From IMG/VR virus record IMGVR_UViG_3300049718_000055, positions 24,633 to 88,632 of that record: a stretch of 64,000 nucleotides of DNA; one strand, written 5' to 3'. A program made the translations under genes and the position numbers. Shown in pieces: positions 10,201 to 28,740 of the stretch (positions are counted from its first letter, which is position 1; each line of letters begins with the position of its first letter). A model generated the notes under the pieces. That model saw only the letters and a list, made by a program, of their open reading frames with translations, had not been told where the DNA came from and ran no database searches. The stretch comes from a virus.

Positions 10201-13200
10201 TGCGGTTCTGGCTTCTTCTCCTCTTTAGGAGCCTCATAACGGTTTTGCAGAGCCGCTTCAAATTCCTCCTGCGTTACCGGCTCAAACTTCTTCCCCTGTG
10301 ATTTTGCGATCTTCTCCAACTCTGGACGAAAAGCAACATTGAAATAGTCCGCGGCGGTGTGGAGTTCTTGCCCTTCTACTTTCGGAGCAAACAACATTTC
10401 CATCCCCGGCTCACCAACAATCATGTCATTCAAGGCGCCATTGAGACGTGTCGTTTTTGAATCAAGAAGAGCGACATAGACAGCTTGCGTAACGCGGCTC
10501 GGCTCGTCTGGTTTACCTAAGAAGAAATCTCCGTTCCCATAGACGTGATTCCATGCCGGTATCGGCTTGTCGCCTTCTCTCCTGAATCTTCGAGTCTTTG
10601 CCGCCGCCGAAACAGCCTCAGTAACTTTCTCTGTGAGACCTGGATAATAAGCTCTCAGTGCTGTTACCGATCCAATTGCCTTTGTCAGAGAGGATTCTGC
10701 ATCAGTTCCGCTTATCAGCCGCACAGACTCTACATCTAGAATATGAGATCCGACAAGAGCGAGAACAAACTTATCCTTCCCCGCCTTGTTGAGAGTGGCA
10801 TCCTCCCCAACGCTATCGAACCATGCCGCATTTTCGGTAGGTGGAATATGGAAATACTCTCTAGCTTTTTTGGCAAACCAATACGGATCATCGTCAATCG
10901 CCGCTCTTACGGTCGAGATGTCGTTGCCAGCTATTTTACTGGCAATCTCACTTAGGATTCCATCCTTCCCATCCAAACGCTCTTGATGGTCGGCATCGGA
11001 AAGTAGTTTCCCGTTGCTTAACGCCTCTACGTTTTCTCCTACCTGGGCGGAACTGCGGTCGTTGAATAATCTTCCAATTCTAGCCGCTTCACCCACGGTG
11101 TCTATCGGCTTATCCAAGACCCGTACAGGGATGTAGGTTCTTCCATCATCGGGAACGTGTTTAATACCTACCTTAGCGGAGAACTTTGCTACGGCATCAT
11201 TGAAAACAATCATTTCCGCATCGCGGGCCTTCGTATCCCCCATCCGAGAAATGTTCTCAAGCCACTTCTTGAGCCGTAGAAGTCTTGTGTTCCCTCCAAT
11301 TACACGGCCATACGAATCGAGAATCGCTGGACCATTCTCCGGCCCATATCCTGTATCAAAATAAAGCCGATGCGTGAAGTTTTCAGGCTGAGCTTCCCCT
11401 AAGACATCTTTCGTCCGATTCTCATCGAAATCTCTGTACTGCATTTCCTTTGGAACATACTCTTCGTTGTCCTCCAGATTGTTTCCATTCCACCTGTGAG
11501 AGACAATAGGAGCTTCAATGTCCATAAGAGCGTACTGCCCCGGGTGAGATTCCTTCCCTTTGTTGACCTGGGTAGGATCGCCACGACGGGCTATAAGAAT
11601 TCCCCCTCCACTTGGATAATCGCCCTTACCTGCGGCTTTCCCTACCGCATCCGCGGTTTGCTGCACTGCACGATGAAGCGTGTCCGTTGCCTCTTTTACG
11701 GCTTGTGCCCTCTTGTCAATATCCTGTTCCGTAGTGCCGGCGTTGACATCAAACGCATCACCTATCGACCGAACAACCTCAGCAACAGCGGCCTCCTGCC
11801 GACCCTCTGCCGCCTGAACGTACTCCTTTGCCTCTTCCGCGTTACGAGGTTCCGGCGCGGGACTTCCCGCCCTGTCATTGACCCCTTGAGTCGCTTGCCG
11901 ATTGTTCTCAACCCACACGGATTTAGATGCGGCCTCCGCTAACTGCTCCGGCTTATTGAAAACGATGCTGTCTCCCTTGCCAACAATCCTGCGCACTACA
12001 TCGCTTGGGTTTAAGGGATTGAGGTCGTGCTGTGCGCCTCCAGAGGAAAGATACAAGTCTCCGTTTTTCCTCTCGCTTACGGTCCAAGTGCGCCCCTTCC
12101 AGTTAGCGTCTTGAACTGTGTTCCCCGGCTGCAACTGAGCGATCCTCGCCAGAGGATCTTCGCTGCCAGAGAGTTTCTGACGAACCAATGCTTCGACCGG
12201 AACACCTTCCCTGTCGGCTACCTCTTGAAGTCTTCCGGCCGCATATTCAGGATTGCTTGCCCAACCAGCGTCTCCGACCTGGGTGAGAAGATTTATAAGT
12301 GACTGCTCGGTGTCTGGCGCCGGACCCTGCTCTCCCTCTTGCGGATTTGTGCGCTCTGCGCGGCTCTGCCGGCGCCGGTTCGAGTAATCCCTCACACGCG
12401 CCAGTTTCTCTTCAGGAATAGGCTCTGCCCCTGTCGCCAGCAACTCTTGGTCAATCGAAGCAACCGCCCGCTGTGCGTCCCTGTCCCGCTCTTCCCGAGA
12501 CAACCTTTCTTCTCTTGTCATCTCCCCGTAGCGGATACGTCCATAAGCCGCTAAATTCATTGCCAGATTAGAGTAAATTCCATCCTTCTTCAAAGGAATT
12601 TTTTGTCCATCTGGACCATGAAGAAGCCCGTCGGCCCCAAGTTCCCAAACATTGCCTCTGCGGTCAACAATCCTGTCTCCAGACCGCGTGAGCATATTCA
12701 GGTTTTCGTTGGTCAGATCCCATGCAGACGCTTCAGCCTGGGAGAGAGTCGCATCTTTCTTCTCGTAGTCCACTCCAGACTTTTCAAAGGCTTCATCGAA
12801 TTCGTGGTTGAATTGCTCTCTTCCATTTGCGAACGGACCTTCTACGCCCTCACCACGAGCAGCGTCATGCTCGTCTGGTAGACGCTCATCACCGCCAATC
12901 CCGGTCATGTCTTGAGCGTGGCGAGAATCAATTTCCTTCGCAATCAACTGCTCTGTGACATTTCCTAGATGATCTTCCTTTGCGGCATCTTCGGCTGTTG
13001 TGGTCCTGAGAGCTTGAATCTTGGCAAGCGTTCTCGCCGACTCCTCATCCTCAACACTCGCGGCCGTCTCTGCTGATCCGAAGTACCCTGTGGAATTTAG
13101 ATACTGCTTCTCCCCTGTTTCCTCGTCTTGGACATAAACCCCAAACCCGCTGCCGACTGGCTCGACGCCGATATACGCTTTCTGCTCAAGACGGGTTACG

Positions 13201-15050
13201 GGGCCATAAACCTCTTCGCCATCAACAACCGTCTTCGGAATTACTTCCGTGGCTTGTGGGCGCGGAGTCTCTTTCTCACGCTCCTCTCTAGCCTTTACGT
13301 TCCGCTGCCTTGCGGCCTCGTTGTCGGAAATGATTTTCTCGCGCTTTACTGTCTCCGCCTTTTTGTTCTCCTCTACGGCTTTGCGGATTGACTCCTGAAC
13401 CGCGCTCTCATGCTGCCTTGCAACAAGCTCTTCCCGGTCTGCATGGATTTTCCTTACAGCCCGTTCCGCCGCAATCGGATTCCAGGATTCTCTTAATGCT
13501 GTGCTGTGACGATATTGAATCCGTTTCAGGTTTCTTTCGTCTGCCTTCCCTATGAGATCATGCGCTCTCTGGAAATAAGGGTCATCGTTCCATACCTTGT
13601 CGAGTACAATCGACTGCTCTTGCGGAGTTTTTAATTGCCCAAATTTCTTCCCGTCAAATAGTTCCTTAGAGGCATCATCAAGATGGCTCGTGACTACCGC
13701 CTTGGCAGCATCTTCTTTAATTCCATGCGCCAGCATTGCAAGATTGCCAAGACCGGAAAGGCCAAATTCAAGCGTTTCTGAAATATCCCCCTTCTTTGCC
13801 GCTTCCATTGTCTGCTGATAGTCCTGCCCTACTCCAGCGGCCATCTGAATCTTGAAGCCATAATCAGCAAGAGTGGAGACGGTTCTGACTGTTCTCGCAA
13901 CAGCAATAGGAGCTTCCCATCCCATTTGTTCTGGAAGGCTTGCGCCCCGTGAGGCCACGATAATAGCCACCATTGCAGGATTGGTTAGAGTTTCCCCAAG
14001 CCGCATCGAGGCATTTGAAATTCCGGCATTACCTTTTGCTACTATTCCTTTCCACTTACTTGTCTCTCCAACCCTGTCGGCCCATGTATTGTTTTTTGCC
14101 CTGATAAGGTCTGTGTCCCCTCCTTCAATACCTACGGATTTTGATGCGAGAGAGACTAGGTTGGGATGCTCCGCGTGTGGCTCTGGAATGCCCAGCAGTC
14201 TAGCGGTATTCGCTATTCCTCCCTTGATTTCATCCCACCAATTTCCGCCGGCAACTTCGAGCCTCTTCGTTGCTCTGGCAAGATCGGTAAGTCCTGCGTA
14301 TTCCTGCTTTCGCTCCTCATTCCACCCTTGCTCACTGGCATAGGCATACCCTTCAGCATAGTGCTTCGCATACTCCTCTGGGGTAGAAAATGAGTGATAC
14401 GCTATCTCCGCCGGGTCCGCAATTGTACGAGAGGTGTCAAAGCGATGATTTTTAAGGTCTGATTCTTCTTTTGCCTTGTGATCTTGCGCCCTCTTCAATG
14501 CGCTCTGGTATACGCCTCCCTGCTCATCTGGCGTGAGGGTTTTCTTCTCTGCATCTTCCCACTGCAAAGACATAGCATATTCTTCACCCCTTGCGGGATT
14601 TAGATGATGCAGTTGCACACCATCCCTGTATCGGCTGACTCTTTCAATTGCCCTGTCTTTGCTTTGCCCTTCGTTTATAGTGCGGGCATAGATTCTCTGC
14701 TCGGGTGTCATCCACGAATCGTCATACGTTCCGCTCTGCATACTGCGGGCATTTTCCGATTCGACTGACGAAGGCCCAATTGTCGCATGGTGAGGGCCGG
14801 CGCCTGTCGCTTGGAGAATCTTTTCCTGTGGGGTCTGAACAGCGGTTGCACCGTGCTTTTCAGCCAGTGCCGCGAAGTCTGTCTTTGGGGTCTTACTTAC
14901 ATTTTGAATAACAGGTTGGGCAGCTTGAGACTTCGACGAACCTCCAAATTGCTTGGCGAGACTCTGGTAATCGACGTTTGGGCCTTCCTTCTTTTGCCCA
15001 ACTACGCCACCAAATTGTCCTGCGAGTTTTTCATAATCAGTCGGCATCAC
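4206..15050 (-). CDS. Giant polyvalent virion/ejection protein: ParB-like domain, HExxH metallopeptidase, Strawberry-notch/DarB-like SF2 helicase
   Basis: 3614 aa. GPAILDSYGRVIGGNTR (ParB-like); THELWH; GDGALVASGTGTGKT, IADEAG, SATP, AGGIG, QTLGRPWR helicase motifs. Last gene of the virion module. Confidence 0.8.
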   Translation of the reverse strand: MMPTDYEKLAGQFGGVVGQKKEGPNVDYQSLAKQFGGSSKSQAAQPVIQNVSKTPKTDFAALAEKHGATAVQTPQEKILQATGAGPHHATIGPSSVESENARSMQSGTYDDSWMTPEQRIYARTINEGQSKDRAIERVSRYRDGVQLHHLNPARGEEYAMSLQWEDAEKKTLTPDEQGGVYQSALKRAQDHKAKEESDLKNHRFDTSRTIADPAEIAYHSFSTPEEYAKHYAEGYAYASEQGWNEERKQEYAGLTDLARATKRLEVAGGNWWDEIKGGIANTARLLGIPEPHAEHPNLVSLASKSVGIEGGDTDLIRAKNNTWADRVGETSKWKGIVAKGNAGISNASMRLGETLTNPAMVAIIVASRGASLPEQMGWEAPIAVARTVRTVSTLADYGFKIQMAAGVGQDYQQTMEAAKKGDISETLEFGLSGLGNLAMLAHGIKEDAAKAVVTSHLDDASKELFDGKKFGQLKTPQEQSIVLDKVWNDDPYFQRAHDLIGKADERNLKRIQYRHSTALRESWNPIAAERAVRKIHADREELVARQHESAVQESIRKAVEENKKAETVKREKIISDNEAARQRNVKAREEREKETPRPQATEVIPKTVVDGEEVYGPVTRLEQKAYIGVEPVGSGFGVYVQDEETGEKQYLNSTGYFGSAETAASVEDEESARTLAKIQALRTTTAEDAAKEDHLGNVTEQLIAKEIDSRHAQDMTGIGGDERLPDEHDAARGEGVEGPFANGREQFNHEFDEAFEKSGVDYEKKDATLSQAEASAWDLTNENLNMLTRSGDRIVDRRGNVWELGADGLLHGPDGQKIPLKKDGIYSNLAMNLAAYGRIRYGEMTREERLSREERDRDAQRAVASIDQELLATGAEPIPEEKLARVRDYSNRRRQSRAERTNPQEGEQGPAPDTEQSLINLLTQVGDAGWASNPEYAAGRLQEVADREGVPVEALVRQKLSGSEDPLARIAQLQPGNTVQDANWKGRTWTVSERKNGDLYLSSGGAQHDLNPLNPSDVVRRIVGKGDSIVFNKPEQLAEAASKSVWVENNRQATQGVNDRAGSPAPEPRNAEEAKEYVQAAEGRQEAAVAEVVRSIGDAFDVNAGTTEQDIDKRAQAVKEATDTLHRAVQQTADAVGKAAGKGDYPSGGGILIARRGDPTQVNKGKESHPGQYALMDIEAPIVSHRWNGNNLEDNEEYVPKEMQYRDFDENRTKDVLGEAQPENFTHRLYFDTGYGPENGPAILDSYGRVIGGNTRLLRLKKWLENISRMGDTKARDAEMIVFNDAVAKFSAKVGIKHVPDDGRTYIPVRVLDKPIDTVGEAARIGRLFNDRSSAQVGENVEALSNGKLLSDADHQERLDGKDGILSEIASKIAGNDISTVRAAIDDDPYWFAKKAREYFHIPPTENAAWFDSVGEDATLNKAGKDKFVLALVGSHILDVESVRLISGTDAESSLTKAIGSVTALRAYYPGLTEKVTEAVSAAAKTRRFRREGDKPIPAWNHVYGNGDFFLGKPDEPSRVTQAVYVALLDSKTTRLNGALNDMIVGEPGMEMLFAPKVEGQELHTAADYFNVAFRPELEKIAKSQGKKFEPVTQEEFEAALQNRYEAPKEEKKPEPQPEVKAEEIPKIGIEPPAEPKAETEKGIKPPPKTRSEKEVAKDVLLNQVREQGYVDYEGLKTFVYADESTKENAKWHMKNFHLVSEAIWEFEKPEGVERKDALKWVLERKKILSSIERDKYFERGRGRTEWDEIGKTSRVYLHEKADKTTVTHELWHAFLPFLSDEDLRALNTITGPTKALWDGKSRADLVGKVLEEFSERAIGGIEKYNRDENPKLFSAETGKILAKLKEIFQQVYKKWREDPLRPFRVTDDAKETLDRIYHVTGMDPADEFLTETEAAEKAKKRIKNPSDVVDPIEQARKDTGAIFVRRDVKGVIEARTHEGAKDVKNIPGKTVVFAFDDYAKAVMAFTPIGRETRYGSSGIQADAAQLIEMDDGNWGVKFNTKGNVPPTVMFQESQPETRGEMGARRNQLKRELSALPRHKILDKQFLQMQIDDLENKIAAEYGTEERAPKTDPELAHKVMEERKNERANRVREGTHEAAGIQRPPTVDRVSGKTELGMPRHDGAGGSPAIRGFGVDRVEPIRMLPLRETNDPVVGKTADDAPETEESWKKRTGKAGMSTESPLPIWAITERTARILDEDKHPGQAPTVQIVMSALQRGDGALVASGTGTGKTWTAMGIISEFGRDREAGDKPLTLYITRNRPLLEKTADEPAKAFGVDLSLDTPKFGIENGTYGVSYQTALRNPVYQNIKWDMVIADEAGEARNWFKKAENKKGMSQGQMLMAIMQNAKKGVYMSATPFHTPLEVGYLEKLGLWKKGGYEEFLKSNFKTYYKDKTLVAELDPVKMAKLRQQLIQRGQMVSQTLSYEGFNVHFGFVPMTSAMKRGLDTISGLMERARTRTKLTEGLSPKSISAYEAQFTKAFLEREMIPNVIEMAKRDIEKGYSIIIASPTTDEDLFRKERSGEPTAFQQMDDAMNGQFSRLLPRLPNVFDALQAEFGDKIGNYSGVNQSDTGREKVRKDFQDGKLPMAYLSIPAGGIGSDWNDTKGDKPRLMYVLGPPYSGVLLEQTLGRPWRDGTKSDVHVVFLGTDAAPQVRIMKELVAPRMRSIRAAVHGIKDSLATAMENYSDVERTRAEQDTLNFANGNEIEVKAADFGVRHAGRVVGIDSWDAIQIPPASEAMNKGLRTGAQEGADWTNMYQDKERAFTPPPTNVKAEKAINDIAESAAKNPDIPKETIALGAAHASEVAGITPEGIDPAEAGSYAMKGELQSHGFTYDPETGEWSGPLYHAKKMLGRDTSGLEERRLGESEEPTFGQRIKEKIRIPAINAARKIGMQDKVRRWFDKEYANYQKRTLGMNFRMRALGVSRKSGYLEKTGAVFDKLDDYQQKQMGISGNFQMRLIDIFKENKLEWNSDGPVEGKVKEWLRRPGHDDVREVWDVKEGRVASNDPRINKAAEELRLLMDEANELATKEGVHREDGSIYDVPNNPHYMPHETDWDMELTDSETGEIRTLSEVCDDKTLDDVAKLRYLEKERQRLKVGTGDAHRWLGELSRDRERRLKRPRNPNVTTKRTVNHPFYKKDIWALNKYFDQLGSAVALESTLGHDMGKVGSLIADVPSSALRKDLTENLKLYFEYQDWNTRVGRMYRFMQPFEVITKMSLSPISVAFHNVHAGQLGLKPWFVGNYRMFRHPKERMREKFYVGVVTPRMNPALIEGKNFGVAKEMLKATGFSDVYNWQRATVGEIAWAWMDLDVLSDLKAGGKRAETSRRLLKDRMLLSDDEINKAVANNRWDEESKWKAERVFANKVAFTEQPEQMPRMAKLSMSEGLGDAEKNLHAVAHAAYNLQSFQIKSYSGIKEWYFDEVFHHRNFRPLLPFFLLYPAAGFALMNLKAGVKHGAQKAFEGATGQSHTRDSWDNLLEDYRDLEKHPWSGALKICLDSLFIGMANDRMKMWTDIGMMAAEGEEKKLYKMMGYMATDELDRLVGSIYKDIFMAGSTVPKAADDTSKLKNPTVKKFGKNLEKESAKEAKRIAWPLGTIPKVNEWSGTKKIQPPPK

Positions 15051-22096: not shown

Positions 22097-22180
22097 TGGA
22101 GCGGGGGACGGGATTTGAACCCGCGTGTCTCTCGACGGCAGCTTGGAAGGCTGCTGACCTACCAGTTGGTCATCCCCCGC
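22097..22180 (-). tRNA. tRNA-Gly(TCC), long variable arm
   Basis: GCAGC-CT TCC AA-GCTGC; TCCA end. Confidence 0.9.
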
Positions 22181-22185
22181 AAACT

Positions 22186-22259
22186 TGGTGCTCCCCGCAG
22201 AAATCGAATCCGCATTGGCCGATAATCGGTCGGCTTTCCTACCATTGGAAGAGAGGAGC
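22186..22259 (-). tRNA. tRNA-Ile(GAT), C33/T37
   Basis: GCCGA-CC GAT TA-TCGGC. Confidence 0.85.
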
Positions 22260-22260
22260 A

Positions 22261-22334
22261 TGGGGCCGGGAGCGAGAATCGAACTCGCGCCTCATCCGTA
22301 CCAGGGATGCAGTCTCCCACTAAAATATCCCGGC
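22261..22334 (-). tRNA. tRNA-Thr(GGT)
   Basis: CATCC-CT GGT AC-GGATG. Confidence 0.9.
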
Positions 22335-22340
22335 TCTACT

Positions 22341-22418
22341 TGGTGCGGATGGCAGGACTCGAACCTGCGGTAATTCTTCTTTGTAGGAGAAGCGGCGTCG
22401 CCACTGGCCCACATCCGC
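22341..22418 (-). tRNA. tRNA-Val(TAC), C33
   Basis: CTTCT-CC TAC AA-AGAAG. Confidence 0.85.
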
Positions 22419-22423
22419 AAAAC

Positions 22424-22501
22424 TGGTACTCCCGGTTGGACTCGAACCAACATCAATCCACTTACGGACACTCGCTTCGGAGGCGAGACCGATACGGGAG
22501 C
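22424..22501 (-). tRNA. tRNA-Arg(CCG), no canonical D-arm
   Basis: CTCGC-CT CCG AA-GCGAG; 7-nt connector. Confidence 0.85.
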
Positions 22502-22506
22502 ATAAC

Positions 22507-22583
22507 TGGGGCCGCTGGCCGGAATCGAACCGGCGTCATCCAACTACTCTTGCCGGTTTAGGAAACCGGAGAGATACAGCGGC
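22507..22583 (-). tRNA. tRNA-Arg(CCT), no canonical D-arm
   Basis: CCGGT-TT CCT AA-ACCGG; 7-nt connector. Confidence 0.85.
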
Positions 22584-22587
22584 AAAC

Positions 22588-22664
22588 TGGCGCTCCCGGC
22601 AGGAGTCGAACCCGCGTCATCCGTCTACGGCCTCCTGTTTAGAAGACAGTGCCGATACGGGAGC
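22588..22664 (-). tRNA. tRNA-Arg(TCT), no canonical D-arm
   Basis: CTGT-CT TCT AA-ACAG; 7-nt connector. Confidence 0.85.
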
Positions 22665-22666
22665 AT

Positions 22667-22752
22667 TGGTGGAGCCGGTGGGACTCGAACCCACATTGGG
22701 TTACCCCGCTGATTAAAAGTCAGGTCTCTGCATCCAATTCGAGTACGACTCC
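22667..22752 (-). tRNA. tRNA-Lys(TTT), long variable arm
   Basis: CTGA-CT TTT AA-TCAG; V hairpin GGG-TAA-CCC. Confidence 0.9.
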
Positions 22753-22758
22753 GAAACT

Positions 22759-22833
22759 TGGTGGGTCGCCGGGGAATCGAACCCCGCTCTTTCGATTAAG
22801 AGTCGAGTGCATCGCCGACAATGCTTGCAACCC
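22759..22833 (-). tRNA. tRNA-Lys(CTT)
   Basis: TCGA-CT CTT AA-TCGA. Confidence 0.9.
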
Positions 22834-22836
22834 ACA

Positions 22837-22930
22837 TGGTAGGGGATGAAGGTGTCGAACCTTCCCGTTGCGCTAATCTGGCGCTCTCCAGAGTTTATAA
22901 GACTCCGCCGCACGGCCGATGCTATCCCCC
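22837..22930 (-). tRNA. tRNA-Ile(TAT), long variable arm
   Basis: GGAGT-CT TAT AA-ACTCT; V hairpin GCGC-CAGATTA-GCGC. Confidence 0.85.
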
Positions 22931-22936
22931 AAAACT

Positions 22937-23008
22937 TGGTGCCGCGCCTGAAAATCGAATTCAGCAAACAGGGTTATGAATCCTGCGTTCTCTCCAGAGA
23001 TGCGCGGC
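22937..23008 (-). tRNA. tRNA-Met/Ile2(CAT), small D-arm
   Basis: CAGGA-TT CAT AA-CCCTG. Confidence 0.8.
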
Positions 23009-23009
23009 T

Positions 23010-23083
23010 TGGCAGGGGATACAGGACTCGAACCCGTAAATTCCGCTCTGGAGGCGGACGTTTTTCCATTAGACTAATCCCCT
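23010..23083 (-). tRNA. tRNA-Trp(CCA)
   Basis: TCCGC-CT CCA GA-GCGGA. Confidence 0.92.
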
Positions 23084-23095
23084 ATGTCAAAGAGC

Positions 23096-23121
23096 ATAAA
23101 AAACCCGCTCCTGAGAGCGGG
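23096..23121 (-). terminator. Attenuator terminator, operon 1
   Basis: CCCGCTC-TCAG-GAGCGGG-TTTTTT, upstream of tRNA-Trp. Confidence 0.9.
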
Positions 23122-23148
23122 CCTGTCGCAACAAAAACGCAGCAGACC

Positions 23149-23220
23149 CTAAAACACGACTCCCCAAATGACCCGCTTCCCGGTCATTCTGGTTATCACG
23201 TGTTTGGTCCTGATCTGCAT
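23149..23220 (-). CDS. Leader peptide 1 MQIRTKHVITRMTGKRVIWGVVF
   Basis: AGGTGG RBS; codons match all 12 downstream tRNAs. Confidence 0.85.
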   Translation of the reverse strand: MQIRTKHVITRMTGKRVIWGVVF

Positions 23221-23240
23221 GAATTCCCACCTGCAAGTAC

Positions 23241-23269
23241 AGCGTACATCAACTTTCCGTTTTGTGCAA
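23241..23269 (-). promoter_or_regulatory. Sigma70-like promoter P1
   Basis: TTGCAC-17-TACGCT. Confidence 0.75.
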
Positions 23270-23273
23270 CTGC

Positions 23274-24458
23274 TCAGTCCTTGTAAGGATCAAATTCACG
23301 GGCAGATGCCATAGCCACTCCGACCGGGGTCAACACGTGAAGAACTTTGATCGAATCTCCACACGCCGCAAGAACTCCGTCTAGCCGTTTGTAGCAGTCT
23401 GGAGATTCGTCTAACCCGGCGCCACGCAGTTCAATTCCGGCCTTCCTTACCCATCCATCCATCATCTCCTGAGTTACTCTTCCAGGGCGCTTGCACTCGC
23501 CTGTCTTGCGGTCGAAAGTCCCCTTCGCCTCCATGCGACCCATTGCACGGCCAGCGCCGTGAACGGTTGAGTAAAGGCTGTACTTGGCATCCTCGTTCTC
23601 CATGCCCTCCAAGATGACGGACTTCTCGCCCATCGTTCCTCCAACGAATCCCTTCTGTCCAGGGAACGCCGGAGTGGCTCCCTTGCGAACAACCCACAGC
23701 ATCTCACCACCATGCTCTTCCCGCCATGCGAAGTTGTGATGGTTGTGAACCTCTTCAATAGCCTTAGCTCCAAGAATCTTAATCACGCGGTCGCAGACCC
23801 AGTTCCTTCCTGCATAAGCGTACTCGCCGGCAAGAGACATAGCCTGTAGATATTCGCTGCCTAGTGCGCTGTCTACCGACAAGACACATGGCTCCACATC
23901 CATTCCGTCTTTTGCTCCTGCTGCTTTCAAAAACCACGTTGCAATCTTATGCCCGAGGCCGCGAGAACCGAAATGAACACCCACCCAAACGCGGTCTTCT
24001 TCGTCTGTAAAAAGATCTACATAATGGTTTCCAGAACCCAAAGTCCCAAGTTGCTGATGAGCCATTTCCTTGAGCGGGGAGGTCATTGAAAGACTCCAGG
24101 CATCATGCTCGAAAACCTGATCGTCTACACGCTCGTCGTCATTCTTTCTCCCAACCCCAAAACTGACTATATTCCATACGTCATCCATTATCGGCTTGAT
24201 GCTGCCACGCAACATCCAGCCTTCCATGTCGGTCAACACGGCCTTGTTTCCACAGCCGATGTCGTATCCCACTCCGGTTGGGCTGATGGAATTTCTATAA
24301 GCCACAACACCGCCAATGGGCACACCGTACCCAAGGTGGTTATCTGGCATCAATGCCACTTTGTCCGCGGTTTTCGCACAGGTCCGAATCTGGTTGAGAG
24401 TCTTTTCTTCAGCTTCCCCAAATACCGGTATAGTTCCATCTACTAACTGCATCCCCAT
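23274..24458 (-). CDS. rtcB: RNA ligase RtcB
   Basis: PDNHLGYGVPIG, VGYDIGCG, GTLGSGNHY, HNHHN, RKGAT, HGAGR, DESPDCYK; start revised to follow the GGAGG RBS. Confidence 0.97.
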   Translation of the reverse strand: MGMQLVDGTIPVFGEAEEKTLNQIRTCAKTADKVALMPDNHLGYGVPIGGVVAYRNSISPTGVGYDIGCGNKAVLTDMEGWMLRGSIKPIMDDVWNIVSFGVGRKNDDERVDDQVFEHDAWSLSMTSPLKEMAHQQLGTLGSGNHYVDLFTDEEDRVWVGVHFGSRGLGHKIATWFLKAAGAKDGMDVEPCVLSVDSALGSEYLQAMSLAGEYAYAGRNWVCDRVIKILGAKAIEEVHNHHNFAWREEHGGEMLWVVRKGATPAFPGQKGFVGGTMGEKSVILEGMENEDAKYSLYSTVHGAGRAMGRMEAKGTFDRKTGECKRPGRVTQEMMDGWVRKAGIELRGAGLDESPDCYKRLDGVLAACGDSIKVLHVLTPVGVAMASAREFDPYKD

Positions 24459-24473
24459 ACCCTCCTTTTTATT

Positions 24474-24548
24474 TGGTGAGCGCGGAGGGAATCGAACCCC
24501 CATCGTTGCGTTCGTAGCGCAGCACTCTATCCGTTGAGCTACGCGCCC
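24474..24548 (-). tRNA. tRNA-Arg(ACG)
   Basis: TGCG-CT ACG AA-CGCA; canonical D-arm with GGA. Confidence 0.92.
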
Positions 24549-24559
24549 ACATTCAAACT

Positions 24560-24633
24560 TGGTCTCCGAGGGCGGACTCGAACCGCCGACACCGCGCCCC
24601 GAACGCGGGATGTTTCCACTACACTACTCAGAG
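24560..24633 (-). tRNA. tRNA-Pro(CGG)
   Basis: CCGCG-TT CGG GG-CGCGG. Confidence 0.9.
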
Positions 24634-24634
24634 A

Positions 24635-24708
24635 TGGTCAGCGAGGGGAGAATTGAACTCCCACCACAAGTTCCCAAGACTTGGATGCAACCATTACACC
24701 ACTCACTG
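24635..24708 (-). tRNA. tRNA-Pro(TGG)
   Basis: CAAGT-CT TGG GA-ACTTG. Confidence 0.92.
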
Positions 24709-24717
24709 ATTAAAAGT

Positions 24718-24885
24718 TATGCGTGACGGAATCAAACCGTCTCCACCCGCTCCAATGCGGGAGTGCTATCCGTCCAGAGTCGTGTCGATCTTGAGCCGCT
24801 ACGTATCGCCCCAAAACGCATTCCACTGTACTGCCTTCGCTACGCTCCGTCGAGCTTCACTTTGGCTTCATTACACCAACGCATA
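24718..24885 (-). ncRNA. tRNA-like element with ~97-nt insertion in the D-loop, 6-nt anticodon loop, no CCA
   Basis: TATGCGT/ACGCATA acceptor, GTGT/GCAC D-stem, CCCGC-ATTGGA-GCGGG, GACGG-TTTGATT-CCGTC. Confidence 0.7.
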
Positions 24886-24887
24886 CT

Positions 24888-24963
24888 TGGTGCCGACTAC
24901 CCGTATCGAGCGGGTTTCCATCGCTCTTCAGGCGATTGCTATGACCTCATCAGCTAAGTCGGC
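24888..24963 (-). tRNA. tRNA-Phe(GAA)
   Basis: ATCGC-CT GAA GA-GCGAT. Confidence 0.9.
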
Positions 24964-24968
24964 AAAAC

Positions 24969-25044
24969 TGGTGGACCTAGAGGGGCTTGAGTCCTCGACC
25001 TCCCCGGTGCAAACGGGGTGCTACTCCATCTGAGCTATAGGCCC
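24969..25044 (-). tRNA. tRNA-Ala(TGC)
   Basis: CCCCG-TT TGC AC-CGGGG; G3:U70. Confidence 0.92.
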
Positions 25045-25052
25045 GTAAAACT

Positions 25053-25128
25053 TGGAGGGAAAGGTGGGAGTTGGACCCACTAGAACCTGTTCCACAGACA
25101 GGCGCCGCACCGTTTGGCTTCAGTCCCC
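25053..25128 (-). tRNA. tRNA-His(GTG)
   Basis: CCTGT-CT GTG GA-ACAGG; G-1 present; two acceptor mismatches. Confidence 0.85.
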
Positions 25129-25138
25129 ATAAAGCTGT

Positions 25139-25210
25139 TGGGGCCGGATGTGGGAATCTAACCCACCGCGCAGGCCGTACAAAGGGCTGCTGCTACTCAG
25201 AGCATCCGGC
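25139..25210 (-). tRNA. tRNA-Thr(TGT), atypical
   Basis: TT TGT AC loop, short D-arm, T-loop TTAGATT. Confidence 0.75.
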
Positions 25211-25759
25211 TCAGTTAAACGCATACCTCTTATCACCTTCGGAGTCCGTGAATAAAAACGGACCCCACTCATTTACCTCGGCGCCGAGAGACCTCAACAA
25301 AAATCGCGGCGTGTGAATCGACTGCGGCAGCGGCCGGCGAAGCAACTTCATTCCAGCTTCCTCCGGCGTCCGGTCGGCCTTGCGGTGATTATCTTTGGCG
25401 CAACATGAAACCAAGTTGCTCCACGATGGCGATCCTCCTCTTGACTTTGGAATTATGTGGTCAAGAGTTAGTTCGCTAGTCTTGAACCTTTCTCCGCAAT
25501 ACATACACCTTTCTCCGTCACGAAGAAAAATGTTCTTGCGGCTTACAACTTGAAGCCTAATTGGGACGTGGCGATAAGCGCGAAGCCTGATTACCGATGG
25601 AGCATAGATTCCAAGTCCGCGATGGATAAGTACATCGGTAGGAACCTCAACCAGAGCAACACCTTTCGTAATAAGAGTCAGAGCCTTCTTAACTGAAACT
25701 ATGCGAAGCGGCTCATACGATGCATTGAGAAGAAGTGTTGCGCTTTTTCCTATTGTCAT
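25211..25759 (-). CDS. HNH endonuclease (McrA-like, tRNA-array-associated type)
   Basis: LLLNASYEPL..PSVIRL..RDGERCMYCG..LTLDHIIPKSRGG..WSNLV..N. Confidence 0.93.
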   Translation of the reverse strand: MTIGKSATLLLNASYEPLRIVSVKKALTLITKGVALVEVPTDVLIHRGLGIYAPSVIRLRAYRHVPIRLQVVSRKNIFLRDGERCMYCGERFKTSELTLDHIIPKSRGGSPSWSNLVSCCAKDNHRKADRTPEEAGMKLLRRPLPQSIHTPRFLLRSLGAEVNEWGPFLFTDSEGDKRYAFN

Positions 25760-26531
25760 AGTCACCACGCTCCCAACGTTCTTTCAGTAAAGCAGACATC
25801 TTCGCCTTAGTTTCTTCCTTGTGCTTCATACCTTTGTTTCCAGGTACTCTGCCTTTCCTGATTGCCGACTGTTTAGCCCGTGTTTCTTCGGAAGCCTTTT
25901 TACCTGTCAGAGAGCGAGAAATCTTTGCTTTACTCTCTTCTGAAAGTTTCCTTCGTCTGTTCGCCGCAGAAATCTTCTCACTAAATCCCTGCGGTTTAGG
26001 TCTCCCCTTCAAAGCAGCAGATCGTTTTGCTTTTTCTTCCTCCGACATTGGGCCTAATTTCCGGCCCCTAAATGATGCCGACATACGCGCTTTGGTTTCT
26101 TCCGAACGCTTTGAACCAGTCCTAGATTTAATCATCTTGGCTATCGCCTCTGCTGTGTGTCTCAATCCCTTATGCACAGCAGATACTTTCGCTTTCATTT
26201 CGGCTGTTCTAACCGCTCCTGATCCTCCCTCGCCCCCATCTGTTCTATTTCTCAAGCATCCAGTTCCAAGGTTAATTCTCCCATGGAATTTTATTAGCTG
26301 CTTCTCCATGAAAAACGCTTCGTCCTCTGACAAATCTTTGGCAATAATTACAATCATCGATTTATCTTTTGGAGTACGTATCGCTTCAATAGGATTTTTC
26401 TTATAGGCTCTTAACCCGTGTCCTTTCCCTATGTAATAAGGAGAACCCGCTGGGCCGTGTTCGGAGGCAAAAGTCCTCACGTATTGGTATACGTAAAACC
26501 CAGAGATTACAGGTCTCCTATAGTTACTCAC
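25713..26531 (-). CDS. GIY-YIG homing endonuclease with NUMOD3 repeats
   Basis: FYVYQY..PYYIGKG..R..NRTDGGEG, repeated SEETKAKMS; start revised to GTG 26531 because a tRNA lies upstream. Confidence 0.88.
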   Translation of the reverse strand: MSNYRRPVISGFYVYQYVRTFASEHGPAGSPYYIGKGHGLRAYKKNPIEAIRTPKDKSMIVIIAKDLSEDEAFFMEKQLIKFHGRINLGTGCLRNRTDGGEGGSGAVRTAEMKAKVSAVHKGLRHTAEAIAKMIKSRTGSKRSEETKARMSASFRGRKLGPMSEEEKAKRSAALKGRPKPQGFSEKISAANRRRKLSEESKAKISRSLTGKKASEETRAKQSAIRKGRVPGNKGMKHKEETKAKMSALLKERWERGDYDNRKKRNTSSQCIV

Positions 26532-26555
26532 TGTCTTACTCTCTTTCCTTAAAAG

Positions 26556-26630
26556 TGGAGCCGGGTAGCGAAATCGAATCGCTGTCTGTGGGATACGAAT
26601 CCACTGCTCTGCCATCTGAGCTAACCCGAC
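26556..26630 (-). tRNA. tRNA-Thr(CGT)
   Basis: GTGGA-TT CGT AT-CCCAC. Confidence 0.9.
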
Positions 26631-26713
26631 TATGTTTTTCTGCTAACCTCTTCCACACTTCTCGGAGATCGGCATTCAAATGAAACCTGTGCGGCATGTC
26701 AACCTCCAAAATT

Positions 26714-26787
26714 TGGAGCGGTTTGCCGGATTTGAACCGGCGCTTTCGCCCTGGCAAGGCAACGTCTTACCACTCGACTAAAACCGC
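26714..26787 (-). tRNA. tRNA-Gly(GCC)
   Basis: TTGCC-TT GCC AG-GGCGA. Confidence 0.92.
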
Positions 26788-26792
26788 TTCAC

Positions 26793-26866
26793 TGGCTCCG
26801 AGAGTAGGAGTCGAACCTACACAGCGAGCTTCAAAGACTCGCGGCCTACCGTTAACCGATCTCGGA
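26793..26866 (-). tRNA. tRNA-Gln(TTG)
   Basis: CGAGT-CT TTG AA-GCTCG. Confidence 0.9.
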
Positions 26867-26873
26867 TCAAACT

Positions 26874-26949
26874 TGGCTGGGAAGGCAAGTCTCGAACTTG
26901 CTACCTTCCGGGTCAGAGCCGGACGTTCTACCCGTTGAACTTCTTCCCA
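26874..26949 (-). tRNA. tRNA-Gln(CTG)
   Basis: TCCGG-CT CTG AC-CCGGA. Confidence 0.92.
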
Positions 26950-26958
26950 ACTTCAAAC

Positions 26959-27033
26959 TGGCTGTGCAGGTGGGAGTCGGACCCACATCCTCTCGCTTAA
27001 CAGGCGAACGCTCGACCATTGAGCTACCGCACA
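26959..27033 (-). tRNA. tRNA-Asn(GTT)
   Basis: TCGC-CT GTT AA-GCGA. Confidence 0.92.
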
Positions 27034-27035
27034 TC

Positions 27036-27074
27036 AAAAAGCCCCTAACCGCTTATTCTCGGCTAGGGGCTTTT
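27036..27074 (-). terminator. Attenuator terminator, operon 2
   Basis: GCCCCTAGCCG-8nt-CGGTTAGGGGC-TTTTT, 2 nt before tRNA-Asn. Confidence 0.9.
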
Positions 27075-27117
27075 CCTCATTTGCTACGTTGTAGCAGTTG
27101 AATCTTTGCGCCCAAGC

Positions 27118-27180
27118 CTACACGGGATTACCGAACGCTTGTGGCGTTGTCGGCTGTCCGGTATGGGCTCGGTTCATCAT
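27118..27180 (-). CDS. Leader peptide 2 MMNRAHTGQPTTPQAFGNPV
   Basis: ATG 7 nt after the -10 box (leaderless); codons match all 12 downstream tRNAs. Confidence 0.87.
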   Translation of the reverse strand: MMNRAHTGQPTTPQAFGNPV

Positions 27181-27187
27181 GTTTCCT

Positions 27188-27216
27188 ACTTTACCGCCGT
27201 TCGCAATTTCTGTCAA
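27188..27216 (-). promoter_or_regulatory. Sigma70-like promoter P2
   Basis: TTGACA-17-TAAAGT. Confidence 0.85.
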
Positions 27217-27225
27217 ATCATTTTC

Positions 27226-27302
27226 TGGTAGGGTTGGTGGAACTCGAATCCACTAGGACATGATTGAAGGTCATGGTGCTCGTCCGCTTTGCATTCAACC
27301 CC
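27226..27302 (-). tRNA. tRNA-Glu(TTC), C33
   Basis: CATGA-CC TTC AA-TCATG. Confidence 0.87.
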
Positions 27303-27307
27303 ATAAC

Positions 27308-27384
27308 TGGCGCGGTAGACGGAAATCGAATCCGTGTACACGATCTTGAGAGAATCGCTGGAGAACCAGCACCCCTGCTACCGC
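27308..27384 (-). tRNA. tRNA-Glu(CTC)
   Basis: CGATT-CT CTC AA-GATCG. Confidence 0.87.
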
Positions 27385-27385
27385 A

Positions 27386-27460
27386 TGGCGGTCCCACGGG
27401 GAGTTGAACCCCGAACGCCTCTTAGACAGAGAGGAATCATTGCCGTTAGACCATGGGACC
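27386..27460 (-). tRNA. tRNA-Asp(GTC)
   Basis: CCTCT-CT GTC TA-AGAGG. Confidence 0.9.
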
Positions 27461-27464
27461 AAAA

Positions 27465-27583
27465 GTTCCGTTTTGTTTGCCTAGCGGCCCAGTCTCCCAT
27501 CGCATTAGCAGAATTCCGACTGAGGTTCATCCACTGCGGACTCGAGTCCGTTTGCTAGACTCTTGCCAGAACGGTACTGGCCT
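27465..27583 (-). ncRNA. Unassigned structured RNA between tRNA-Met and tRNA-Asp
   Basis: Nested helices CCGTTCTG/CAAAACGG, GTCTAGC/GCTAGGC, CGGAC-TCGA-GTCCG, CTCAGTC/GACTGGG. Confidence 0.55.
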
Positions 27584-27589
27584 TTGGAT

Positions 27590-27664
27590 TGGTTGCGTGG
27601 GGAGGACTCGAACCTCCGGTCTCCAGCTTATGAGGCTGGCGAGATGCCGCTTCTCTACCTCGCC
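27590..27664 (-). tRNA. tRNA-Met(CAT), 1-72 mismatch (initiator-like)
   Basis: CCAGC-CT CAT AA-GCTGG; G1xA72. Confidence 0.87.
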
Positions 27665-27669
27665 ATTTC

Positions 27670-27698
27670 AGTATGCCACTACTCTTTCATGTTGGCAA
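27670..27698 (-). promoter_or_regulatory. Internal sigma70-like promoter P4
   Basis: TTGCCA-17-CATACT, 5 nt upstream of tRNA-Met. Confidence 0.7.
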
Positions 27699-27701
27699 GT
27701 A

Positions 27702-27787
27702 TGGTGCATCGCCCCAGGCTCGAACTGGGCTGCTCCGAAGAGCGGCAGGTTTACAGTCTGCTGGCCGTCCACCCGACCATGCGATGC
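27702..27787 (-). tRNA. tRNA-Tyr(GTA)
   Basis: GCAG-ACT GTA AAC-CTGC; long V arm. Confidence 0.92.
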
Positions 27788-27791
27788 AAAA

Positions 27792-27881
27792 TGGAGGAAG
27801 GTGGAGTAATCGAAACCCTACGCCATCGCTGACGCACCACGGTTTTCAGGACCGTTCGCCGACCATTCAGCGGCACCTTCC
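27792..27881 (-). tRNA. tRNA-Ser(TGA), 8/4 fold
   Basis: GGAAGGTG/CACCTTCC 8-bp acceptor, 4-bp T-stem, ACGGT-CC TGA AA-ACCGT. Confidence 0.85.
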
Positions 27882-27885
27882 AAAC

Positions 27886-27973
27886 TGGCGGAGACGATCC
27901 GATTTGAACGGATGGAACCTTGCGGTTCGGAGGTTTAGCAAACCTCTGGATTAGACCGCTCTCCCACGTCTCC
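27886..27973 (-). tRNA. tRNA-Ser(GCT)
   Basis: GAGGT-TT GCT AA-ACCTC; long V arm. Confidence 0.92.
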
Positions 27974-27978
27974 AAACT

Positions 27979-28054
27979 TGGTGCCGATGGTCGGGTACGA
28001 GCCGACAAGCCTGAAGGTTTGAGCTTCAGAGGTATTCCTTCCCATCACATCGGC
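27979..28054 (-). tRNA. tRNA-Leu(CAA), short variable loop
   Basis: TGAAG-CT CAA AC-CTTCA. Confidence 0.85.
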
Positions 28055-28059
28055 AAAAC

Positions 28060-28135
28060 TGGTGCGGGTGGAGGGACTCGAACCCCCATGAGACTGATCC
28101 TAAGTCAGCCGCGTATTCCATTCCGCCACACCCGC
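28060..28135 (-). tRNA. tRNA-Leu(TAG), short variable loop
   Basis: GCTGA-CT TAG GA-TCAGT. Confidence 0.9.
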
Positions 28136-28146
28136 ACATCTCAAAC

Positions 28147-28219
28147 TGGAGTACCGGGCCGGACTTTAACCGGCTTCAACGGTTTTGCAGACCGTCCGCT
28201 CGCCCTTCGCTTCCGGTAC
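28147..28219 (-). tRNA. tRNA-Cys(GCA)
   Basis: ACGGT-CT GCA AA-ACCGT; U73. Confidence 0.88.
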
Positions 28220-28220
28220 A

Positions 28221-28298
28221 TGGTGCGGGTGAACGGTGTCGAACCGATCCTAAACTGGGCTTAAACCAGTTGCCTCTTCCAACGTGGGCTACACCCGC
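28221..28298 (-). tRNA. tRNA-Leu(TAA), short variable loop
   Basis: ACTGG-TT TAA GC-CCAGT. Confidence 0.88.
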
Positions 28299-28300
28299 AC

Positions 28301-28334
28301 AAAACAAAGCCGCCGATCTCTTCGACCGGCGGCT
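28301..28334 (-). terminator. Attenuator terminator, operon 3
   Basis: AGCCGCCGGTC-GAAGA-GATCGGCGGCT-TTGTTTT, directly before tRNA-Leu. Confidence 0.9.
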
Positions 28335-28360
28335 CGTGAATTCCAAACTTTGGAATCAGT

Positions 28361-28426
28361 TCACATAAGCCCCCGGCCCGTCAATGGCAGGCAATACGAG
28401 GATAGCGAACTGAGTAAAATTCTCAT
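28361..28426 (-). CDS. Leader peptide 3 MRILLSSLSSYCLPLTGRGLM
   Basis: ATG 6 nt after the -10 box (leaderless); all six Leu codons, 4 Ser, Tyr, Cys. Confidence 0.87.
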   Translation of the reverse strand: MRILLSSLSSYCLPLTGRGLM

Positions 28427-28432
28427 ATCCAA

Positions 28433-28461
28433 ATCTTCCCACAGATAATCATTATTGTCAA
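28433..28461 (-). promoter_or_regulatory. Sigma70-like promoter P3
   Basis: TTGACA-17-GAAGAT with extended TGn. Confidence 0.75.
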
Positions 28462-28515
28462 TCGGTCATTCCGGTACAGTTAAATTCCCCTCTTCGTCCT
28501 CCAATTGAGGCTGAG

Positions 28516-28740
28516 GTGTACACCATGCCACTAAGTTTGTTTTGGATCATCGCCGTTGTAATCATTGCCGGAGTAGTTCTTTGGGCTCTAAACTCGTTCC
28601 CTGCCATTGACCCCACCATGAAGCAGATCGCCAGAGTGCTTATCATCGTGCTCGTGGTTATCATGGTTCTCTACTTCCTGTTTGGATTGCTTGCAGGTGG
28701 TGGTGCGGGATTCCATAGCTTCCCCGGTCCTTGCCGCTAA
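28516..28740 (+). CDS. Small two-TM membrane protein
   Basis: Two hydrophobic helices flanking PAIDPTMKQI. Confidence 0.75.
   Translation: MYTMPLSLFWIIAVVIIAGVVLWALNSFPAIDPTMKQIARVLIIVLVVIMVLYFLFGLLAGGGAGFHSFPGPCR

Follow-up and report, generated by a model that had tools for sequence, protein, structure and literature searches.

The tRNA array and its upstream end

The window, i.e., the whole stretch of 64,000 nucleotides that we analysed, is part of an 88.6-kb record of an uncultured virus (IMG/VR record IMGVR_UViG_3300049718_000055, positions 24,633 to 88,632), and matching DNA occurs in peat metagenomes. Among the products of the window are a portal, a terminase, and a major head protein, and nearly all of its genes are read from the minus strand. 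Around 35 tRNA genes lie on this strand at 22097-28298, interspersed with RtcB, an HNH endonuclease, and a homing-endonuclease-like ORF containing NUMOD3. Together they have the attributes of an L-array: at least 20 close-packed tRNAs, specificities for most amino acids, RtcB and homing endonucleases, and sharing across unrelated genomes. A small cassette forms the upstream end of the array. It is followed by seven tRNA genes, identified with ARAGORN, with Rfam, and by reading the anticodon loops by hand:

27702-28298, minus strand: tRNA block that the cassette is proposed to gate
28221-28298, minus strand: tRNA-Leu(taa), found by ARAGORN, beginning 1 nt past the U-tract of the terminator
28150-28219, minus strand: tRNA-Cys(gca), found by Rfam, anticodon loop read by hand
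28060-28135, minus strand: tRNA-Leu(tag), found by ARAGORN
27979-28054, minus strand: tRNA-Leu(caa), found by ARAGORN
27886-27973, minus strand: tRNA-Ser(gct), found by ARAGORN
27796-27881, minus strand: tRNA-Ser(tga), found by Rfam, anticodon loop read by hand
27702-27787, minus strand: tRNA-Tyr(gta), found by ARAGORN

The block thus has the composition given in the initial annotation of this DNA, even if two of its seven genes, Cys(gca) and Ser(tga), are missed by ARAGORN and detected by Rfam. The window array has no terminator 3' of tRNA-Tyr, so that read-through may extend into the Met, Asp, and Glu tRNAs downstream. These have a promoter-like site of their own, and the Leu/Ser/Tyr/Cys leader described below has no sensing codons that match them.

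The three tRNA-Leu genes of the window (27979-28298, minus strand) measure only 76-78 nt and are missing the long variable arm that bacterial tRNA-Leu usually has, an arm that is present in the L001 homologue of tRNA-Leu(taa). The anticodon loop of tRNA-Ser(tga) reads CCUGAAA, with a C at the position where U33 is expected. Further along the array, the fold of the 179-nt gap between tRNA-Phe and tRNA-Pro (24709-24887, minus strand) shows an acceptor-like stem and a hairpin resembling a T-arm (GACGGTTTGATTCCGTC), and the gap could be a tRNA-like gene that carries a large insertion. The 129-nt spacer between tRNA-Met and tRNA-Asp (27461-27589, minus strand) is structured, and an exact 207-nt contig of a peat metatranscriptome (27445-27651) spans tRNA-Met and this spacer. 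The same metatranscriptome has exact contigs at 27759-27909 and 28040-28192, so that its matches fall in the region of tRNA-Met and of the block listed above, with none on the leader; they are assembled contigs in which DNA carry-over is possible, and neither their coverage nor the gap can be interpreted. A freshwater metagenome of another study (X4) holds contigs identical to the window at 27771-28225 and 28318-28730. A near-identical strain is found in X5, for which one change listed in the cassette region falls in the palindrome loop (28348).

Upstream of tRNA-Leu(taa), the cassette has the following elements:

28456-28461, minus strand: -35 hexamer TTGACA, read from the sequence
28433-28441, minus strand: extended -10 element, TGG followed by GAAGAT (28433-28438), with a 17-nt spacer from the -35 hexamer
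28361-28426, minus strand: leader ORF, 21 codons and TGA, with its ATG 6 nt past the -10 element
28388-28402, minus strand: region 1, leader nt 25-39, codons 9-13 (Ser Ser Tyr Cys Leu), pairing with region 2 in minimum-free-energy folds
28367-28380, minus strand: region 2, the antiterminator strand, leader nt 47-60, codons 16-20, with region 1 and the terminator 5' arm as alternative partners
28340-28356, minus strand: palindrome ATTCCAAAGTTTGGAAT, 17 nt, whose hairpin is the tip of a long antiterminator stem in the fold of the RNA to nt 108
28299-28335, minus strand: intrinsic terminator, with 5' arm (28324-28335), loop (28319-28323), 3' arm (28307-28318), and U-tract to 28299

The promoter was absent from the list produced by the consensus scan because its -10 hexamer alone matches the consensus at only three of six positions. 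There is no space for a second promoter between it and the first tRNA. Since the ATG lies 6 nt past the -10 element, the leader mRNA is predicted to be leaderless, and translation of the leader, which lacks a Shine-Dalgarno sequence, rests on this predicted leaderless start. The minus strand from 28426 to 28361 reads as the 22 codons quoted in the initial annotation, exact to the base, and encodes the peptide MRILLSSLSSYCLPLTGRGLM followed by the stop. The sole plus-strand gene nearby is a 74-aa ORF (28516-28740), divergent from the cassette, with a good GAGG ribosome-binding site and a product predicted to be a two-helix membrane protein; its promoter-like site (28420-28449) overlaps the leader start.

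The residues of the leader are largely those decoded by the tRNAs behind it. Leu, Ser, Tyr, and Cys (L/S/Y/C) account for 12 of the 20 residues past the start codon and, as counted previously, for 11 of the 12 in codons 4-15, where the lone exception is CCA (Pro). The same four amino acids make up 18% of the residues of long ORFs, which gives a binomial P of 8e-8 for the leader stretch. Among 711 small ORFs called mechanically in the window, the leader alone reaches 11 or more L/S/Y/C within 12 residues, and none of the 11,120 stretches of this length that can be drawn from long ORFs of the phage does.

Alternative pairings of the leader RNA

The terminator stem (28335-28307) has 12 pairs, eight of them G-C, and is followed by TTTGTTTTG. 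Its 5' arm, GAGCCGCCGGTC, can pair at 11 of 12 positions with the tail of the leader, GGCCGGGGGCTT (nine Watson-Crick pairs, two G-U pairs, and one G-G mismatch). This agrees with the earlier proposal that the G-rich tail, which does not match the tRNA block, is the antiterminator strand. The GGCCGGGGGCTT/GAGCCGCCGGTC duplex has an energy of -21.4 kcal/mol, equalled by none of 300 shuffles. The antiterminator (2:3) and terminator helices are mutually exclusive (-21.4 vs -22.3 kcal/mol, the latter arm to arm). The fold of the cassette region as a whole beats all 200 shuffles (z = -3.75).

The minimum-energy fold comprises, in every lineage, a large leader hairpin (1:2), a small A+U-rich hairpin, and the terminator. 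In the leader hairpin, the L/S/Y/C codons pair with the G-rich tail immediately 5' of the stop codon. Part of the richness in Leu and Ser could stem from a pyrimidine-rich strand pairing with this tail, but the comparison of reading frames given below and the Tyr and Cys codons oppose such an explanation.

We folded the RNA with the nucleotides under a ribosome masked. With nt 1-37 masked and the RNA ending at the terminator loop, the best fold of the window is one long antiterminator stem; the antiterminator stem includes the pairing of GUGA (28361-28364) with UCAC (28336-28339). When the ribosome sits on the stop codon and nt 49-76 are masked, region 2 is covered and the window terminator forms. 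The geometry of the footprint indicates that region 1 is covered, and region 2 stays exposed, when a ribosome stalls at around codons 6-12 (Ser, Ser, Leu, Ser, Ser, Tyr, Cys), and that from codon 13 on a stalled ribosome begins masking region 2. In the full-length RNA of the window at equilibrium, the terminator is still preferred under most masks, those at codons 9-15 among them; hence, the switch must be kinetic, as in trp. When the RNA extends only to nt 108 and carries no ribosome, the minimum-energy fold is likewise the antiterminator, from which it follows that basal termination depends on the earlier formation of the 1:2 hairpin.

These pairings suggest a mode of action. Host RNA polymerase would start at the extended -10 promoter, at or beside the A of the leader ATG, and produce a leaderless mRNA. 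If the 21 codons were read fast, the ribosome at the UGA would cover region 2 and the terminator hairpin would form; if the leader were left untranslated, region 2 would be kept in its pairing with region 1 and the terminator would form as well. Termination would stop transcription 1 nt ahead of tRNA-Leu(taa). If usable tRNA for Leu, Ser, Tyr, or Cys were short, the ribosome would stall at around codons 6-12 and occupy region 1, freeing region 2 to pair with the terminator 5' arm upon the synthesis of the latter, the palindrome hairpin juxtaposing the two strands. The polymerase would then continue into the seven tRNA genes, i.e., the decoders in shortage. The inducer could be any shortage of usable tRNA, be it from cleavage, from amino-acid starvation, or from a poor fit to the pools of the host, or else a general slowing of elongation. 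The cassette would in this way close a feedback loop on decoding capacity through a trp-type kinetic switch.

The cassette in related, sister, and rearranged arrays

We searched IMG/VR for relatives with RtcB-based and motif-based scans, and retrieved the whole array region of each of ten further virus records (G001-G010). The eleven arrays share one order of tRNA genes: Leu(taa), Cys, Leu.., Ser.., Tyr; then Met, Asp, Glu, Glu; then Asn, Gln, Gln, Gly, Thr.., His, Ala, Phe, Pro.., Arg; and last Trp, Met, Ile, Lys, Lys, Arg (three), Val, Thr, Ile, Gly. One of them (G006) keeps these blocks and carries the Leu-to-Gly ones on the other strand. The genes flanking the related arrays are unrelated and structural proteins are not shared, so the context is no guide to relatives. 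The tRNA sequences are too diverged between arrays for DNA pattern searches; two hits of a metagenome pattern scan carry no tRNAs and were discarded as chance matches, and a search of cultured-phage DNA returned similarity to tRNA-Met only, with no relative of the cassette.

The cassette lies directly 5' of Leu(taa) in all 11 arrays, and each has a strong terminator. The short ORF between promoter and intrinsic terminator is kept in all of them, as is the geometry of the promoter: a -35 hexamer at the same position (TTGACA, TTGACG, or TTGTCA), N14, TGn, a -10 hexamer of the type (G/A)AnnAT (ending in GT in one lineage), and, after 6-10 nt, an ATG or, in some relatives, a GTG. This geometry predicts an RNA start at or next to the start codon, and the spacing is compatible with a leaderless mRNA throughout.

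Each of the nine distinct lineages has an open leader frame, and the other two frames are often interrupted by stops. L/S/Y/C make up 61% of the residues in the leader frame vs 27% and 23% in the others, and 99 of the 108 residues at codons 4-15 of the nine lineages (92%). Every leader has at least one Tyr, always TAT, and at least one Cys, always TGC, in varying order. This retention of Tyr and Cys is not explained by a pyrimidine-rich pairing strand. We also considered a functional micropeptide and rejected it, since the order and sequence of the leader are not conserved and its composition alone is.

The MAFFT alignment of the 11 leaders was too rough for an analysis of covariation by column, and we compared instead the duplex energies of cognate and swapped tails and arms. 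Across the nine lineages, cognate duplexes average -16.7 kcal/mol vs -13.0 ± 0.9 kcal/mol for swapped partners, with none of 20,000 permutations as good, and the cognate pair is the best of its row and column in five of the nine. Tails and arms differ together, as in the window (GGCCGGGGGCTT/GAGCCGCCGGTC) and L001 (TTCAGAGGC/GCCTCTGAA): the complementarity of a tail to its own arm persists where the terminator sequence has been replaced.

The window has two further cassettes of the same build, and their leaders contain no L, S, Y, or C at all. In the cassette 5' of the Asn-to-Arg block, 17 of the 19 leader residues are amino acids of that block; in the one 5' of the Trp-to-Gly block, this is the case for 19 of 22. 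The sister leaders of the relatives have equal composition and a different order of residues. Thr, Gly, and Arg isoacceptors are split between these two blocks, and the leader codons match the tRNAs of their own block 80 times vs 20 for the other block, counts that come from related lineages and are not independent (the window itself gives a split of 8/8 and 4/6).

The cassette is also found in bacterial genomes. A scan with the 17-mer matched many contigs without a tRNA array, from Collinsella and others, and we used only those labelled Acidobacteriaceae, Terracidiphilus, or Bryobacteraceae. Among these, contigs of metagenome-assembled genomes (MAGs) of Acidobacteriaceae/Terracidiphilus, of up to 986 kb, carry the same array with leader-terminator cassettes, beside RtcB or a LysR-type gene (L139, L155, L168, L201, L208, L209, L216, L241, and around 25 more loci with the same array order). 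The first leader of these contigs has residues S, Y, L, and C as well as D and E, and behind it come a terminator and the tRNAs for Leu, Ser, Tyr, Asp, and Glu. The design of the cassette is therefore one that extends beyond phages; Acidobacteriaceae are likely the hosts of these phages, and the shared array points to its exchange between host chromosomes and phages.

Two arrays with a different order (L004 and L010) serve as natural swaps: they have tRNA-Trp among the Leu, Ser, Tyr, and Cys tRNAs, and that leader has TGG. Their second leaders encode D, E, K, N, I, and V, have the corresponding tRNAs behind them, and show no stretch rich in L/S/Y/W. The Leu/Ser/Cys/Tyr/Trp-rich leaders (L004:3290-3474 and L010:6940-7050) have 28 and 38 codons and end around 20 nt before the first tRNA, with neither a terminator nor a significant fold found in these Leu/Ser-type leaders. 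They are C-rich and G-poor, resembling Rho-loading sites, so that a second route, perhaps via Rho, may exist. One could extend this to the window and suppose that a translated leader senses decoding speed and passes the signal on by covering a C-rich site for the loading of Rho, as happens at tna, or through RNase processing or stability of the precursor. The preference for the window terminator at equilibrium even with region 1 masked would fit such a route. Yet, the window and its ten close relatives have a strong terminator, and a route of this kind does not need the complementarity of each tail to its own arm, which makes it unlikely as an explanation of the cassette.

Another account would be an ordinary constitutive promoter, an insulating terminator, and a small ORF present by chance, with no regulation at all. 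Terminators are many in phage genomes, the window has two other pairs of palindrome and terminator, and the use of each Leu codon once in the leader (see below) was spotted post hoc. However, a promoter facing a 12-bp terminator 128 nt away would silence the tRNA block, and chance would not be expected to produce the composition statistics, the conservation in 11 phage and in bacterial arrays, or the complementarity of cognate strands. Of the explanations considered, we hold this one to be the least probable, and very improbable in absolute terms.

The palindrome has a distribution of its own. The 17-nt sequence ATTCCAAAnnTTTGGAAT occurs 12 times in the window, vs 0.2 expected:

8188, 10162, 28340, 33456, 36590, 37353, 41378, 44636, 53744, 57289, 60347, 61912, window: copies of the palindrome, 17 nt each

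Ten of the copies lie in short intergenic gaps of minus-strand genes, directly past a stop codon or before a start codon, and three precede a terminator-like hairpin. Two copies are inside a 3614-aa ORF (4206-15050, minus strand), where they code for (T/I)PK(F/I)GIE. The Pfam matches of this ORF are of helicase type only (AAA_34, ResIII, and DEAD, at residues ~2200-2450), and for this reason we dropped the idea of an N4-like virion RNA polymerase with the palindromes as hairpin promoters. The palindrome is also present in a related phage (G008). Genome-wide, it may serve as an operator of the phage, as a promoter, or as a hairpin for RNA processing.

Such a motif raises the question of whether the cassette is a structured 5' leader RNA whose terminator is under the control of a trans-acting factor, either a phage or host protein on the palindrome or a tRNA that binds directly, with an incidental ORF. 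The many intergenic copies speak for this, as do the absence of a Shine-Dalgarno sequence and the conservation of CTCAGTTCG at the nucleotide level together with its pairing to GAACTGAG. An incidental ORF is difficult to reconcile with a frame that is open in all lineages, has a start fixed relative to the -10 element and a frame-specific L/S/Y/C content, and ends at a stop codon placed such that a terminating ribosome covers region 2. Moreover, the composition of the leader follows the tRNA content across cassettes and rearranged arrays, the hairpin of the relatives at the position of the palindrome differs in sequence, and no T-box or other Rfam family matches. We regard control by a trans-acting factor as slightly less probable still than the route via Rho or RNase.

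The comparative data, the frame-specific composition, and the alternative pairings therefore agree with what had been proposed initially, a leader-peptide attenuator matched to its tRNA block. We conclude that the cassette is probably a multivalent, ribosome-mediated transcription attenuator that gates the Leu/Cys/Ser/Tyr tRNA block, with a probability of roughly three in four. The evidence is computational throughout: it bears directly on how the cassette is built and conserved, on its frame-specific composition, and on its alternative pairings, and from these we infer the translation of the leader, the start point of transcription, and the response to tRNA shortage.

Possible codon-level sensing and known attenuators

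The leader uses the six Leu codons (TTA, CTC, CTA, CTG, TTG, and CTT) once each, from which the initial annotation had argued for the sensing of individual isoacceptors. The observation holds for the window, where six different codons among six Leu have a P of 0.007 under the Leu usage of the phage, in a post hoc test. The pattern is restricted to the window and the near-identical G010; in the other nine lineages, Leu codons are repeated (CTC twice, CTG twice), with 3-5 distinct codons among 3-6, near expectation. Furthermore, the sixth Leu codon, CUU, is codon 20 and lies within the antiterminator strand, and a stall there would mask the strand instead of freeing it, so this codon cannot signal. 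The one-of-each pattern is thus probably largely incidental and does not demonstrate isoacceptor sensing, which by this route is weakly supported for the window leader. For the system as a whole, sensing at the level of isoacceptors is plausible: every leader draws on both boxes of Leu (UUR and CUN) and of Ser (AGY and UCN) and has UAU and UGC, and in the sister cassettes the Thr, Gly, and Arg codons favour the isoacceptors of their own block, by the 80 vs 20 given above.

Leader-peptide attenuation is textbook knowledge for amino-acid biosynthesis and for a synthetase operon; to our knowledge, it has not been established for tRNA genes, and our full-text literature searches returned no description of leader-peptide attenuation of tRNA genes. 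A search of 28299-28470 against Rfam gave neither a leader family nor a T-box match at E-values up to 1. The cassette shares with the enterobacterial attenuators (trpL, hisL, leuL, and the multivalent ilvGMEDA, for Ile/Leu/Val, and thr, for Thr/Ile) an ORF between promoter and intrinsic terminator, regulatory codons in region 1, exclusive 1:2, 2:3, and 3:4 pairings, and a stop codon at which the ribosome masks region 2. With ilvGMEDA and thr, it would also share a leader that senses several amino acids. It differs from them in the genes controlled, which are tRNAs that neither make nor charge the sensed amino acids instead of biosynthetic enzymes, and in a leader that samples four amino acids by many synonymous codons, whereas the enterobacterial leaders use runs. 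Its mRNA is probably leaderless, with no Shine-Dalgarno sequence, and it is located in phage and acidobacterial tRNA arrays.

Control of the decoding machinery itself by a leader peptide has a precedent in pheST of E. coli, which encodes phenylalanyl-tRNA synthetase and has an attenuator with the Phe-rich leader pheM. There too, a loop connects decoding speed and supply, but the product is a synthetase and the amino acid is one, whereas the cassette would deliver tRNAs for four. T-box riboswitches resemble the cassette in being transcription attenuators that report on the status of tRNAs. They recognise uncharged tRNA by direct binding, for which they use a specifier codon and the T-box sequence and need no translation, while the cassette has an ORF and no T-box match.

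The nearest paper concerns the tRNA array of Anabaena, which is silent and is induced by translational stress. Arrays of this type resemble the present one in being dense, covering most amino acids, including RtcB and homing endonucleases, spreading horizontally between bacteria and phages, and remaining silent until translation is impaired. That paper assigned control to direct repeats over the -10 element and start site, with a presumed repressor, and contains no mention of attenuation or terminators; here, each of the blocks with a cassette has its own leader and terminator. Phage tRNAs have also been described as substitutes for host tRNAs that anticodon nucleases have cut (PMC10264068), in work that appears to concern changes in the anticodon loop and not a control circuit. 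As in that work, a set of tRNAs is carried by a phage together with RtcB, and the rationale is tRNA synthesis under depletion of host tRNAs.

This leads to a broader reading, which we put forward only tentatively and consider less likely than not. The leader may act as a live gauge of usable Leu, Ser, Tyr, and Cys tRNAs, such that cutting of these tRNAs by a defence nuclease of the host, or any other throttling of translation, would call up replacement tRNAs, with a sister cassette doing likewise for RtcB. Each block might then be a separate, codon-resolved counter-defence circuit, shared horizontally with inducible arrays of acidobacteria.

If the attenuator reading is correct, the supply of tRNAs in these phages and in the arrays of peat Acidobacteriaceae would be set block by block, by feedback from decoding speed. 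This would provide a concrete mechanism for "spare" tRNA arrays that are silent until translation is impaired, and would connect phage tRNA sets with RtcB and with the host defences that cut tRNAs in a way that can be tested. The cassette would also be a compact natural sensor for the decoding of chosen codons.
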